Source: Nonomuraea sp. H19 (lineage in GTDB: Bacteria; Actinomycetota; Actinomycetes; Streptosporangiales; Streptosporangiaceae). Taken from it: DNA of 32,000 nt. Positions 21,649 through 28,253 of the stretch are shown piece after piece. Made by a program: the position numbers and the translations under genes. Below the pieces are notes generated by a model. That model saw only the letters and a program-made list of their open reading frames with translations, had not been told where the DNA came from and searched no databases. The first letter of the stretch is position 1; each line of letters begins with the position of its first letter. The DNA lies in NCBI RefSeq assembly GCF_052068215.1, contig NZ_JBQHCV010000011.1, positions 242,003 through 274,002 on the forward strand, written 5' to 3'.

Positions 21649-22340
21649 CGGAGGTGCATCACGAGGACGTGGCCGCGTACGCGCTCGGCCTGCTCGACGA
21701 CGAGGAACGGGCGGCGTTCGAACGCCACCTGGCCGGCTGCGCGAGCTGCGCGGGCGAGGTGGGGATGTTCACGGAGATGGGGGAGCTGATCAAGAGCGTG
21801 CACCCGGACGACCTGCTGCCCAGCCCACCCGATCCCCAGGTCGAATCCCTCCTGGTACGCCGGGCCGCCAAGGAACGCCGTCGCCGCCGGATCCAGCGCA
21901 CGTTCATGAGCGCCGCCGCCTGCGTGCTGATCGGGTCCGGCGTCTTCCTCGCGGTCAACTCGGCGACCAGTGGCCCGAACCCCGACAGCATCCACGGCCC
22001 GGCCCGCGAGCTCCTCCTGACCGGCAGCACCTACTCCGCCACCGATGCCGCCACCGGCACGTCCGCCGTCGTCGGCCTGGAGGACAAGGGCTGGGGCACC
22101 CATGTCGCGCTGGAGCTCAAGGGCGTCAAGGGACCGCTGCAGTGCCGTCTCGTCGCCTTCGGTGACGACGGCCGCTCGGAGGTCGTCGCGAGCTGGGGCG
22201 TACCCGACAAGGGGTACGGCGTGCCCGGCTCCCCGGACCCTCTGGTGCTGCACGGCGGCACCAGCCTTCCCCAGTCCGACCTGAACCACTTCACGATCGA
22301 GACCATCGACGGCCGGCTGCTGGCGACCATCGCAGTGTGA
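21645..22340 (+). CDS. Membrane-spanning zinc-binding (zf-HC2, HxxxCxxC) anti-sigma factor
   Basis: The ATG overlaps the sigma gene stop (ATGA). N-terminus: VAAYALGLLDDEERAAFERHLAGCASCAGEV. One TM helix: FMSAAACVLIGSGVFLAV. Extracytoplasmic C-terminal domain. Confidence 0.85.
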   Translation: MTEVHHEDVAAYALGLLDDEERAAFERHLAGCASCAGEVGMFTEMGELIKSVHPDDLLPSPPDPQVESLLVRRAAKERRRRRIQRTFMSAAACVLIGSGVFLAVNSATSGPNPDSIHGPARELLLTGSTYSATDAATGTSAVVGLEDKGWGTHVALELKGVKGPLQCRLVAFGDDGRSEVVASWGVPDKGYGVPGSPDPLVLHGGTSLPQSDLNHFTIETIDGRLLATIAV

Positions 22341-24615
22341 CGAGCTTCAGGTGGCGCAGGGCCTTCCGCAGCTCGCTGACCTGCTGTGGCTCCGCGATGC
22401 CGTCCCAGGGGGCGAGCGCCGCCAGCCCGGCCGCCCGGTGCCGGACGGTGTGCTCGGGCCGCAGCCCGGCCAGGCGCAGGTGCGCCAGCGCGGTGCTCAC
22501 CCCCGCCGGGGGCAGTCCGGCCAGCGCGTCGTCCAGCAGCGCCGCCACCTCCTCCGGCACGTGCTTGGGATCCTCCAGCAGCGCCCCCGCCCGGTGCACG
22601 AGGCAGCGCGCCCGCCCGATCCCGTCGGCGGTCTCGGCATAGAGCCGCTCGGCCTGCTGGAGGTGGGAGCTCGTGTCGAAGACCAACCCCAGGTAGAGAT
22701 GCGCGAGCGCGAGCAGCTCATGAGCGTGCGCCTCCGCGCCGCGGTCGCCGGCCCGCCGCGCCAGCTCCAGCGCCTCGAACAGCACCGCCCGGGCGTCGGT
22801 GTAGAGGCGGCCGGCCTCGGCGCCCAGCCCGTCGTGATCGAGCGTCTGCCCCCGGCGTAAGAGCAACGCGGCGACGTTGATCATCCGGATCGCGTGGGCG
22901 GCAGTGTCGCCTCCGGAGAGCGCCTGACCGTAGTGGACCAGCGCGGACTCGACGGCGGTGAACTCGTCGCGGCTCGCCAGCAGCAGGACGGCCGCGTGCC
23001 CCAGATGCAGCTCCGCAGGCCAGGACTGCACCCTGACCCGCAGCTCGGCCGCCTGGTTGAAGTGCTGGCGCGCCTTGCGCGGGTCGCCGGAGGTGAGCAG
23101 GATCGCGCACTGCCGCAGCTCGGCCGTGGCCCGCACGTGATCGTCGCCGAGCGCCTTGGCGGCCTTGGCCAGCGCCTCAGCCGCGCGCAGCCGGTCCTCG
23201 TGCCGCTGTTCGAGCCGGAACCACGAGTCGAGCGCGTCGGCGATGCGCCCGAGCGCGCGGCTGGTCTTGGGCACGGGTCGCCCGCGCGTCAGCACCTGCA
23301 GCAGCACCCGGTCCTCGATCGCGAACCAGGTGCGGGCGTCGTCGCCGGGCAGCCGGGCGGCGAACGCGTCGGCCTGCTCCGCGAAGTGCTCCACCAGCCG
23401 CCGCCAGGCCGCGGCCTCCCGGGGCGTGCTCTCGGCCCCGGCGTCACGGTACGCGCCGGTCACCCGTACGCGGGTCATCCGCACGTTCTCGACGAGGCCG
23501 AGATCGGCCAGCTCCTTGATCGCGTCGTCGGCGGAGGGCACGCCCAGCAGCGCGGCGGCGGCCTGGTGATCGACCTCGGCGACGGGCAGCCTGGCCAGCA
23601 GGATGAGCAGTTGCTTGGCCGTCGGCCTGAGCTGCTTGACGCTCAGGTCGAGGACGAAAGCGAGCTTCTCGTCGATGGAGAGCCTCTTCAGGTCGTCGAC
23701 CACGGCCCGCAGCGGGATCTTCGGGTTGCGGGCGAGCCAGCGGCCGATCCTGACGATCTCCGCCGGGCTGCCCAGGCACGCGTCGACCAGCGCCGTCGCC
23801 TGCGGGTCGTGGCCTGCGTGCTCGTCGCCGAGGTGGCGGGCCAGCAGCTTGCGTCCGGCCTCCAGGTCGAGCGGGCCCAGCTCGATCGGCTTGATGTGCT
23901 GCGGCAGCTCGTCCGGCAGCGGGCCGGCGACCACGATGTGCGCGCCGGGCACCCGGGGCGGCAGCCAGGCGACCTGGCTCCAGGTGCTGACGTTGTCGAG
24001 CAAGAGCACCCGGCCGGTACGGCGGAGCGCGTCGATGACGTGCGACGTCGCGTCCTCCGGCTCCTGGATGGCGCCGGGCGACCGGCCGAGGGTCCGCAGC
24101 ACGCGCTGGGCCACGCTCAACGGCGTTTCCGGATGGTCCCGGTCCGGGCCGCGTACGTCGGCGTACCGCTGCTTGCCGTCGTCGTCGGCCAGCTCCCACA
24201 CGCCCCGGATCGCCACTGCGGACGTGCCCATCCCGACCGGTCCGCGCACCACGACCAGGCCGCTCTCGGCCGCCCGTTCCCTGATCAGCTCCAGCTCGGC
24301 AGCCCTGCCGACGAGGTCGTCGCCGGGGTCGGGAAAGGGCAGGCGTCTTGGGAGCTCGGGAGCGGGCTCGCGGCGACGGCGTAGGGAGCCGGCCAGCCAG
24401 CCGGTCGCGACGGGCGGCGCCAGGGCCATGAGGGCGAGCGCCCAGAGCGGCACGCCCTCGACCAGCTTCTCGATCAGCTGCCCCTGCAGCAGGAGGACCA
24501 CTTCCCCCGCCGTCACCAGCCCGATGATCCCCAGCTCGGGCAGGTGCGCCCCGGCCCGGCGGAAAAGCCGCGACAGCCGGAATCCCAGCCAGTCCTTGCG
24601 CGAGAAGTCGGTCAT
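22291..24615 (-). CDS. Membrane-anchored STAND (NB-ARC-like) NTPase with TPR-like C-terminus; Walker A lysine absent
   Basis: Start ATG 24615 overlaps the permease stop (ATGA). Two TM helices: LPELGIIGLVTAGEVVLLL and VPLWALALMALAPPVATGWLAG. NB-ARC-like blocks: LVGRAAELELI...VVVRGPVGMGTSAVA and RVLLLDNV. A long helical-repeat C-terminus follows. The tracked 248-codon N-terminal extension is rejected. Confidence 0.75.
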   Translation of the reverse strand: MTDFSRKDWLGFRLSRLFRRAGAHLPELGIIGLVTAGEVVLLLQGQLIEKLVEGVPLWALALMALAPPVATGWLAGSLRRRREPAPELPRRLPFPDPGDDLVGRAAELELIRERAAESGLVVVRGPVGMGTSAVAIRGVWELADDDGKQRYADVRGPDRDHPETPLSVAQRVLRTLGRSPGAIQEPEDATSHVIDALRRTGRVLLLDNVSTWSQVAWLPPRVPGAHIVVAGPLPDELPQHIKPIELGPLDLEAGRKLLARHLGDEHAGHDPQATALVDACLGSPAEIVRIGRWLARNPKIPLRAVVDDLKRLSIDEKLAFVLDLSVKQLRPTAKQLLILLARLPVAEVDHQAAAALLGVPSADDAIKELADLGLVENVRMTRVRVTGAYRDAGAESTPREAAAWRRLVEHFAEQADAFAARLPGDDARTWFAIEDRVLLQVLTRGRPVPKTSRALGRIADALDSWFRLEQRHEDRLRAAEALAKAAKALGDDHVRATAELRQCAILLTSGDPRKARQHFNQAAELRVRVQSWPAELHLGHAAVLLLASRDEFTAVESALVHYGQALSGGDTAAHAIRMINVAALLLRRGQTLDHDGLGAEAGRLYTDARAVLFEALELARRAGDRGAEAHAHELLALAHLYLGLVFDTSSHLQQAERLYAETADGIGRARCLVHRAGALLEDPKHVPEEVAALLDDALAGLPPAGVSTALAHLRLAGLRPEHTVRHRAAGLAALAPWDGIAEPQQVSELRKALRHLKLVTLRWSPAAGRRWSRS

Positions 24616-27502: not shown

Positions 27503-28253
27503 CGATGATCTCCCAGAACAGCGAAGGGGAAGCCAGGCTGGCCACCCTGGTCCTGTCGTCGGTGACGACGAGCACGGCCAGACCGGGATCGGCGCCCAGC
27601 GCCGCGCTCACCGCCGCGTGGCAGGGCCCGCAGCCGGTGCGGTCCTCGACCACCATGACCTTGACCGGCACCAGCCTGCACAGGGTGCGGGCGAGCGCGA
27701 CGCCCAGCCGCTCGTCGTGGGCCAGCTCGTGCGGCCGGGAGCGCAGGAAGCCCTGGATGTCCATCCGCCTGGCCATGAAAGCGACCCGGCCGTGCACGAA
27801 CGACGGCGCCAGGTCGTCACGCGCGGCCAGCGCGAGGTTCTGCTCGACGGTCAGGTGCGGCAGCAGCCCGGCGCCCGCGGGGACCAGCCCGATCTCGCGC
27901 TCGGCCGGCAGCCACATGGTGATCTCCTGCCCGCCGACGATGATCCGGCCGCCGACCGGCATCTCCAGGCCGAGCAGGAGATCGGTGAACGCGTCGGCCT
28001 CGGCGCAGTCGGCGGCCACCACCACGGCCGCCCCGCCGGATTCCACGGTCAGCGGGTAGCGCGACAGGCGACGGCGAGTCCCATGTGTTTCCCACGTGAG
28101 GTCAGAGAGCTCGAGAAGTGGCACGTCAGCAACCGCCGTCAACTCCGGATGTCGTCCCCGTTCCGGACTTGACGTTTTCACAAACGGTGAGTCACGGCAA
28201 CGCGATTGACCAGACCCACCAAGCGCATCCAGGCCTCCGGCCACTGGGTGCAC
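27486..28253 (-). CDS. Degenerate ABC ATPase-like protein (all catalytic motifs lost)
   Basis: Collinear with MalK-type NBDs: LLELSDLTW...LTVESGGAAVVV, LLLGLEMPVGGRIIVGGQEI, AEREIGLVP, LLPHLTVEQNL. Motif changes: Walker A is AADCAEADA, signature is LAHDE, Walker B is MVVEDR, H-loop is TDD. The start is uncertain (ATG 28253, GTG 28181 or TTG 28142). Confidence 0.7.
   Translation of the reverse strand: MHPVAGGLDALGGSGQSRCRDSPFVKTSSPERGRHPELTAVADVPLLELSDLTWETHGTRRRLSRYPLTVESGGAAVVVAADCAEADAFTDLLLGLEMPVGGRIIVGGQEITMWLPAEREIGLVPAGAGLLPHLTVEQNLALAARDDLAPSFVHGRVAFMARRMDIQGFLRSRPHELAHDERLGVALARTLCRLVPVKVMVVEDRTGCGPCHAAVSAALGADPGLAVLVVTDDRTRVASLASPSLFWEIIDVPEP

Follow-up and report, generated by a model that had tools for sequence, protein, structure and literature searches.

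A degenerate ABC importer linked to a membrane-anchored STAND protein in actinobacteria: a candidate ligand-sensing complex

What is an ATP-binding cassette (ABC) importer for when its ATPase subunit has lost every catalytic motif, and what would it do in company with a signalling-type STAND protein? The question is raised by a locus of Nonomuraea sp. H19, which lies in a stretch of 32,000 nt (hereafter the window; contig NZ_JBQHCV010000011.1, positions 242,003-274,002, with all coordinates below relative to the window). Four overlapping genes of the minus strand, extending from 22291 to about 28124-28142, encode in this order a degenerate nucleotide-binding domain (pseudo-NBD), a substrate-binding lipoprotein (SBP), a fused permease and a degenerate STAND protein with a TPR domain (pseudo-STAND). 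Because the same gene set is conserved across several actinobacterial orders, the most likely identity of this module is a complex for ligand sensing, as opposed to a pump or an operon in decay. That the four products form a single membrane complex, a CUT1 importer turned into a nucleotide-independent receptor, is a proposal that the sequences leave evenly balanced. A first-pass annotation of this DNA had already suggested sensing rather than uptake, and that reading gains support from purifying selection on the dead NBD, from a charge swap between NBD and permease and from a STAND protein bearing a helix-turn-helix (HTH) in one Acidimicrobiales locus, although sensing itself is still deduced from sequence. 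The same annotation knew of no described system of this composition, and no description of the four-gene module was found in the literature searched.

A degenerate ATPase in a conserved gene set

The pseudo-NBD is still recognizable as an ABC protein, since it matches Pfam ABC_tran (PF00005) at 27.1 bits (cut-off 25), and its profile matches solved importer NBDs (ModC/WtpC, CysA, MalK and PotA) at 1e-34 to 1e-27. Alignment to a canonical NBD agrees with the earlier description of an ATPase-like subunit with no functional motif left, the window protein being devoid of the Walker A Lys, the Q-loop Gln, the LSGGQ signature, the catalytic Glu and the H-loop His (Table 1). Across 42 module NBDs, not one has kept the Lys of Walker A, the Gln of the Q-loop, the catalytic Glu or the His of the H-loop. 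The search pattern used to anchor loci on the NBD was the degenerate Q-loop itself, so that these 37 loci are biased for this motif, but the loss of the Gln holds too in nine loci anchored independently on the STAND or the SBP. In the window's clade the signature reads LAHDE or LSPDE. The pseudo-NBDs of L005 and L044 carry a C-terminal extension of about 150 aa, placed like the regulatory domain of MalK, which fits descent from a MalK/UgpC-type subunit. The Streptosporangiaceae proteins (window 27555-27659 and orthologues) have, in addition, invariant motifs without counterpart in canonical NBDs, namely E-D-R at Walker B, P-C-H a short way behind it and W-E-x-x-D at the C-terminal end.

Loci were anchored independently on three genes, STAND (3 loci), SBP (6) and NBD (37 from a contig scan, 31 of them with enough flank), and the gene content of the NBD-anchored loci was scored with hidden Markov models (HMMs) from seven seed loci. 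The STAND-anchored loci come from Streptosporangium album, Sphaerisporangium viridialbum and Acrocarpospora catenulata, and the SBP-anchored ones from Micromonospora lupini, Thermopolyspora sp., two ENA metagenome contigs, a Mycobacteriales metagenome-assembled genome (MAG) and a JGI contig; all nine hold the four genes in identical order, with mostly identical overlaps. The NBD-anchored loci belong to Nonomuraea, Streptosporangium, Sphaerisporangium, Acrocarpospora, Actinoallomurus, Micromonospora, Plantactinospora, Phytohabitans and Acidimicrobiales MAGs, and each of those with enough flank has all four genes, except L041 and L043, which were rejected as module loci (the NBD of L043 is canonical and has none of the partner genes beside it). 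Linkage of the four genes is found in about 40 loci of several actinobacterial orders, 37-38 of them colinear with overlapping junctions, and three Acidimicrobiales loci are rearranged yet linked: in L031 the NBD is on the plus strand, the SBP-permease pair on the minus strand and the STAND on the plus strand, and the STAND gene of L035 and L036 is found upstream in divergent orientation. The first-pass annotation had allowed that orthologous loci might carry a canonical NBD and lack the STAND gene; they do not, and the STAND-, SBP- and NBD-anchored sets all combine a degenerate NBD with a STAND. The module is self-contained, because flanking genes are not conserved; its neighbours are clade-specific, such as DUF3159 in some Micromonosporaceae and an HTH-STAND regulator in three Nonomuraea loci.

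For the NBD, nine close pairs give ratios of nonsynonymous to synonymous substitution rates (dN/dS) of 0.20-0.34, and the pair formed by the window and L007 gives 0.42; for the other three genes the ratio is mostly 0.1-0.45, the permease being the lowest in several pairs. The degenerate NBD and STAND are a family trait under purifying selection, not a strain-specific decay. A non-functional relic of a decayed importer would explain why all catalytic motifs are lost and why two loci are frameshifted, but intact ORFs are conserved across orders at dN/dS of 0.1-0.45, family-specific motifs (VPAGGGL, GTS, EDR/PCH) are invariant and translational coupling is maintained. This explanation is the least probable of those considered here, and its contradiction by cross-order conservation, invariant motifs and dN/dS is already apparent in the sequences.

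Table 1. Features of the four-gene module of Nonomuraea sp. H19 (window coordinates)
Feature	Position	Strand	Remarks
Pseudo-NBD gene	27486-28124	-	212 aa; alternative start TTG 28142
Pseudo-Walker A AADCAEADA	27990-28016	-	canonical GxxGxGKST
Asp equivalent to MalK Arg47	27981-27983	-	
Pseudo-Q-loop VPAGAGL	27864-27884	-	canonical form has Gln
Pseudo-signature LAHDE	27711-27725	-	canonical LSGGQ
Pseudo-Walker B VMVVED	27642-27659	-	canonical hhhhDE
Pseudo-H-loop VVTDD	27555-27569	-	canonical form has His
NBD/SBP overlap	27486-27502	-	17 nt; stop TAG 27486-27488, SBP ATG 27500-27502
SBP lipoprotein gene	26282-27502	-	406 aa
Twin-Arg signal (SRRALL...) of SBP	27476-27493	-	
Lipobox LAGC of SBP	27443-27454	-	
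SBP/permease overlap ATGA	26282-26285	-	AAGGAGG ahead of ATGA
Fused permease gene	24612-26285	-	557 aa
EAA loop 1	25656-25748	-	Arg at Glu position
Degraded EAA loop 2	24837-24920	-	
Permease/STAND overlap ATGA	24612-24615	-	
Pseudo-STAND gene	22291-24615	-	774 aa
Transmembrane hairpin of STAND	24382-24543	-	two hydrophobic segments, aa 25-78
STAND P-loop GPVGMGTS	24220-24243	-	Thr in place of Lys (GxGTS vs GxGK[ST])
STAND Walker B VLLLDNV	23989-24009	-	
STAND sensor-1 region HIVVAGP	23920-23940	-	no Arg

Importer-derived subunits and the docking interface

The lipobox Cys of the SBP (Cys20) is invariant among 61 homologues. The window protein itself has no Pfam match; its homologues carry SBP_bac_1 or SBP_bac_8 and are automatically named alpha-glucoside SBPs. 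Its AlphaFold2 (AF2) model (predicted local distance difference test, pLDDT, of 91) is best matched in the PDB, using Foldseek, by glucose-, xylobiose-, raffinose- and maltodextrin-binding proteins (TM-score about 0.68, E about 1e-14, 11-16% identity), and its invariant residues are Trp-rich, as in sugar pockets. Model, Foldseek matches and lipobox Cys together identify a periplasmic-binding-protein fold. The N-terminal half of the permease matches BPD_transp_1 (35.2 bits, cut-off 26.4), and also UgpA and GlcT, and its C-terminal half gives a weak match to NCBIfam GlcU alone (1e-4, residues 308-556). An origin from ThiBPQ/FbpABC systems, considered for their fused permeases and for a ThiQ match, was rejected in favour of CUT1 on account of these permease matches and of the sugar-type SBP. 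Descent of the module from a CUT1-type (MalEFGK2/UgpBAEC-like) sugar importer is part of the receptor proposal and stands at the same even balance.

The two EAA loops of the permease have diverged to a different extent. The first can still be recognized, with Arg at the Glu position, or Asp in the other clade. In the second one the Glu is replaced by Arg or Leu and the indels vary across loci, and in Nonomuraea a deletion of 6-8 residues takes out much of the coupling helix, in accordance with the earlier description of a fused permease whose second loop is poorly conserved. The MalK Arg that takes part in the EAA salt bridge, which we take to be Arg47, lies five residues past the Walker A Lys. 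In MalFGK2, the conserved Glu of each EAA loop is salt-bridged to a conserved Arg of MalK (PMC6906923). Charge pairs were read in the module at two aligned positions, the NBD equivalent of this Arg and the Glu position of EAA loop 1. An NBD Asp or Glu is combined with Arg in EAA loop 1 in 24 loci from Streptosporangiaceae, Actinoallomurus and relatives, including the window (NBD Asp48; FTD / LLRVARAFG), an NBD Arg with Asp in 11 loci from Micromonosporaceae and Acidimicrobiales, and an NBD Arg with Gly in one locus. The polarity of the pair is swapped between clades and its complementarity is preserved, a pattern that speaks for continued docking of the dead NBD at coupling helix 1 of the permease. 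Since EAA loop 2 is degraded, we infer an asymmetric complex, with a canonical-type docking site at loop 1 only; in Nonomuraea each complex would be predicted to have one pseudo-NBD.

The state of both loops also bears on the possibility that the importer still works, energized in trans, with the pseudo-NBD at coupling helix 1, a shared MsiK-type ATPase at the other site, one competent ATP site, and the STAND as a regulator. MsiK is commonly shared among actinobacterial CUT1 systems, the permease and SBP of the module are CUT1-like, and the Micromonosporaceae/Acidimicrobiales clade has a near-canonical LSxGQR signature; heterodimeric ABC transporters with one degenerate site do work (PMC7756269). 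Nevertheless, the loop at which a canonical NBD would dock, EAA loop 2, is precisely the one that has lost its Glu and, in Nonomuraea, 6-8 of its residues, the LAHDE/LSPDE signature of the window's clade would place acidic residues at the gamma-phosphate, and the obligately linked pseudo-STAND is left unexplained, all of which makes an importer energized in trans unlikely. TM287/288, CFTR and SUR are alike in using catalytically impaired ABC machinery for gating or regulation, but in these proteins one of two sites is degenerate and nucleotide binding is essential, whereas the only NBD encoded by the module lacks every motif.

The good conservation of the permease, whose dN/dS is the lowest in several pairs, would alternatively suit an ATP-independent sugar facilitator or channel, gated by the SBP and with the STAND as gate-keeper. 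ABC proteins can be channels, as is the case for CFTR and for a chloride-conducting state of MalFGK2 that is cited in PMC6906923. However, high-affinity SBPs need an energy input for ligand release into the transmembrane (TM) domain, so this mode of action would be unprecedented, and no evidence of a pore came out of this analysis; a facilitator is highly improbable.

The STAND protein and its possible output

The two N-terminal TM helices and the Walker A without Lys that were reported for the last gene are both there, as a hairpin at aa 25-78 and as the P-loop GPVGMGTS. The hydrophobic segments of the hairpin are bounded by Arg-rich stretches on both sides, which fits an in-in topology, and the sensor-1 region is followed by a helical domain (HD), a winged-helix domain (WHD) and a TPR solenoid. 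The AF2 model (pLDDT of about 90 for residues 100-758) has its best PDB matches in 6mfv (an archaeal STAND-TPR protein), then in Apaf-1, plant NLR resistosomes and Avs3, and the closest folds to its TPR include LGN/Pins and subunits of the anaphase-promoting complex (APC); model and matches identify a nucleotide-binding oligomerization domain (NOD) fold with a repeat sensor. The PH0952-type 6mfv and Apaf-1 (E of 3e-11 and 1e-7) have in common with the module protein the NBD-HD-WHD arrangement and the repeat sensor, but at 15-17% identity, and they bind nucleotide and have neither a membrane anchor nor ABC partners. The NB-ARC/TPR label given by the first-pass annotation holds by fold and in family members, with NB-ARC matched by 14 of 52 family representatives at E <=0.001 (best E 7e-10; P0251 reaches 35.2 bits, above the cut-off), but not for the window protein by Pfam score (13.5 bits, cut-off 23.5).

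All module STANDs have G[T/A]S instead of GK[ST] (GxGTS, with one GAS) and a VAG-type sequence instead of TSR. Their hhhhDN Walker B is common to canonical regulators (LLVLDNA) and is no sign of decay. An exhaustive HMMER search covered 1.84 billion representatives. Of its best 150 cluster representatives (clusters at 50% identity), at least 44 carry G[T/A]S; their P-loop lies at about residue 110-140 and is in almost every case preceded by N-terminal TM segments. The remainder are canonical GK[ST] regulators, whose N-terminal domains are long and which have no TM segment. The closest sequence relatives are AfsR-like actinobacterial HTH/SARP-NB-ARC-TPR regulators, including that at window 28802-31942 (E of about 1e-47 to 1e-52 with the module HMM), which have the NOD-TPR layout and the hhhhDN Walker B in common with the module STAND but keep GVGKT and TSR, have N-terminal DNA-binding domains and lack the TM hairpin. 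GVGKT and TSR are also retained by the HTH-STAND regulators found near the module (the window one and those of L005, L009 and L010).

Two other cluster representatives have unusual layouts. P0274 (755 aa) joins a two-TM anchor, NB-ARC and TPR with a canonical GAGKT and a sensor-1 Arg, suggesting that a membrane-anchored, presumably active relative exists outside the GTS clade. In P0242 (840 aa, no locus), a module-type SBP reduced to its first ~285 residues (with signal, lipobox and GAADGWVLTDWFEN) is fused to a TM hairpin and a GTS-type STAND, the permease being skipped; either a natural deletion-fusion or an artefact of assembly may account for this protein, which, if real, would link SBP and STAND directly.

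A TM N-terminus followed by STAND and TPR is also the layout of defence STANDs, and Avs3 is among the fold matches, so a conflict or abortive-infection system was considered, in which the STAND sensor would permeabilize the membrane through its N-terminal TM effector, as do Avs or bNACHT proteins with TM effectors. The variable flanks, the fairly high dN/dS and the RHS and type VII secretion system (T7SS) toxin genes of the window would go along with it. Defence STANDs require ATP binding, and here the Walker A Lys and the sensor-1 Arg are missing; moreover, a PADLOC-DB scan of the four module proteins gave no match at E <=0.1 for any of them, the STAND is obligately linked to SBP, permease and NBD genes, and L031 has an HTH where the TM hairpin would be. 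A role in conflict is therefore improbable.

The STAND of L031 (11993-14200; GTS, no sensor-1 Arg) gives a clue to the output instead, with an N-terminal XRE HTH (HTH_31 4.6e-9, HTH_3 1.3e-8) in the place of the hairpin and with a gene divergent to the SBP-permease pair, from which some 700 bp separate it, the classic layout of a regulator. The window STAND has no detectable HTH, a DNA-binding output domain, and has the TM hairpin instead, and no effector domain besides this hairpin was found among the 52 STAND family representatives. The absence of an HTH or other output domain from most members is compatible with a non-signalling membrane scaffold, in which the ABC-derived core would anchor a TPR platform that recruits enzymes of envelope or glycan metabolism. 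TPR solenoids are protein-binding platforms, and the closest TPR folds of the module protein, LGN/Pins and APC subunits, are in line with such a role, as is an OtsA-like glycosyltransferase gene that overlaps the STAND stop in L044. On the other hand, no enzyme gene is recurrently linked to the module, and a scaffold would leave both the conserved extracellular ligand-binding protein and the HTH variant unexplained, which makes it quite unlikely. The L044 gene (12572-14098), seen in this one metagenomic locus, belongs to the Glyco_transf_20 (trehalose-6-phosphate synthase) family and may hint at the ligand or the pathway.

By analogy, the closest precedent for a ligand-sensing complex of this kind would be the link between MalK and MalT in Escherichia coli, where MalK sequesters the STAND regulator MalT (PMC6906923). 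The module resembles MalEFGK2 in its CUT1-type SBP, its MalK-family NBD and its probable pair of permease domains, both would bring the cytoplasmic face of an importer together with a STAND protein that has a helical-repeat sensor domain, and the interface between EAA Glu and NBD Arg appears to be kept in the module in charge-swapped form; MalT, like the L031 variant, has a DNA-binding domain. They differ in that MalK has ATPase activity and a regulatory domain at its C-terminus, whereas the window NBD is dead and has no such domain (an extension being present in L005 and L044), in that the permease halves of the module are fused, and in that MalT binds ATP, is soluble, has a C-terminal LuxR HTH and is encoded elsewhere, whereas the module STAND has a dead P-loop, is membrane-anchored and is translationally coupled to the permease. 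Transporter homologues that sense without transporting (UhpC of E. coli, Snf3/Rgt2 and Ssy1 of yeast) and the so-called trigger transporters have also kept a transporter scaffold for ligand recognition and signalling after transport was lost or reduced, but these are secondary carriers of the MFS or APC (amino acid-polyamine-organocation) type. To our knowledge, there is no ABC importer with a fully degenerate NBD among non-transporting sensor transporters, and none was found in the literature searched.

In the proposed mechanism, the extracellular lipoprotein would bind a carbohydrate-like ligand and dock on the fused permease. The conformational change would reach the cytoplasm through coupling helix 1 and the pseudo-NBD, as well as through the TM hairpin of the STAND, which would lie next to the permease and might occupy the second NBD site, now vacated. 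The STAND/TPR scaffold would as a result oligomerize, or bind its client, in a different way. In the HTH version of Acidimicrobiales the output would be transcription, as in MalK-MalT, whereas in the window version, where the membrane anchor replaces the HTH, it would probably be the sequestration or release of a TPR-bound client.

Several observations weigh against a receptor of this kind. The HTH version that is backed by Pfam is found in a single MAG locus (L031), and the STANDs of L035 (4618-7425, minus strand) and L036 (4617-7424, minus strand) have no TM segments and begin with an N-terminus of ~200 aa without Pfam match. Confidence in the modelled TM hairpin is low (pLDDT <55 for residues 1-90), its first segment being weakly hydrophobic. 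The charge swap follows two clades and may be one evolutionary event, and the signature is still LSxGQR in the Micromonosporaceae/Acidimicrobiales clade only, where it could lie opposite the ATP of a canonical partner NBD. The locus flanks did not yield a conserved fifth gene. The dN/dS of the STAND rises to about 0.8-1.0 in the Streptosporangium pseudovulgare group (L020-L022, three close genomes), and frameshifts are present in two loci, L009 (8142-11096, Nonomuraea salmonea; SBP and permease) and L040 (8529-13897, one MAG; SBP and STAND), reflecting either sequencing errors or local loss of the system.

Two of these cases can be described further. In L020-L022 the dN/dS of the NBD stays at 0.3 and the STAND hairpin is less hydrophobic, and the STAND may be there under relaxed or diversifying selection. 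The N-terminus of the L035 and L036 STANDs was considered as an HTH and not confirmed, as it has no Pfam match and no similarity to the HTH of L031.

With these points taken into account, it is a tentative proposal, held at somewhat less than even confidence, that the module represents an undescribed class of bacterial transmembrane receptor, a nucleotide-independent 'ABC transceptor' in which a dead NBD and a fused permease would relay ligand occupancy to a membrane-tethered pseudo-STAND/TPR protein, both P-loop engines having become conformational or adaptor modules and the HTH-bearing Acidimicrobiales form being a soluble, MalT-like relative.

Gene boundaries, neighbourhood and significance

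The four chained minus-strand genes and their three junctions (17 nt, ATGA and ATGA) were all located where the first-pass annotation had put them (Table 1). The 17-nt overlap of NBD and SBP is also present in L001-L003, and the 4-nt overlap of permease and STAND in L001-L004, L006, L044 and L045. The window has a GC content of 66-77%, and the GC content at third codon positions (GC3) is 0.92-0.95 in all four module frames. In the NBD frame GC3 is down to 0.52 beyond 28122, on the upstream side, and the starts of orthologues correspond to GTG 28124 or TTG 28142; the start of the gene for these reasons lies near 28124-28142, and the end of the feature at 28253, as annotated before, is too far out by ~110-130 nt. 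In the NCBI annotation the same protein (P0049) has 186 aa, its conserved N-terminus being cut away. The pseudo-STAND has a match of 100% identity in a hypothetical protein of Nonomuraea sp. H19. A long ORF at 22291-25359 was discarded as an artefact beyond the STAND start at 24615, the GC3 of that upstream part being 0.50. An Rfam search of window 21900-29000 gave no match, and neither did a promoter and terminator scan, whose power is low in DNA of 72% GC.

Directly upstream of the module lies the gene of a 1046-aa regulator (28802-31942, minus strand) with HTH_Crp_2, NB-ARC and TPR and canonical GVGKT/TSR motifs. A homologue likewise precedes the module in Nonomuraea salmonea (L009, 695-4195) and N. 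fastidiosa (L010, 1804-5301), and not in other genera, so it could be a genus-specific partner or regulator of the module. Between this gene and that of the pseudo-NBD there is an ORF of 125 aa (28329-28706, minus strand, GC3 0.90) without Pfam or PADLOC match, which was not recovered as a recurrent module neighbour. On the other side, an ECF-type sigma factor (21091-21648, plus strand) and a zf-HC2 anti-sigma factor (21645-22340, plus strand) converge on the module, the 3' end of the latter overlapping that of the STAND by 50 nt (22291-22340); the pair is not conserved beside the module elsewhere. Further away, an RHS/DUF6531 polymorphic-toxin-like protein with a T7SS signal domain (8612-13036, plus strand), a ricin-type lectin (15915-16508, minus strand) and a 1400-aa protein with FHA and triple FtsK/SpoIIIE ATPase domains (16772-20974, minus strand; EccC-like) suggest a type VII secretion and toxin neighbourhood at 8612-20974.

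The genes of the module are currently labelled as 'thiamine/alpha-glucoside ABC transporter' or 'hypothetical', names that mislead when metabolism is reconstructed. Switching driven by nucleotides is the defining property of ABC importers and of STAND NTPases alike, and in this module both appear without nucleotide chemistry and yet under selection. The scaffold of an ABC importer could accordingly be repurposed as a receptor, something known for MFS/APC 'transceptors' and not for ABC importers, and the STAND scaffold may function without its ATP switch. The module would extend the single well-studied link between an ABC importer and a STAND protein, MalK-MalT, and offers a compact and testable system of four proteins in antibiotic-producing actinomycetes, such as Nonomuraea and Micromonospora.

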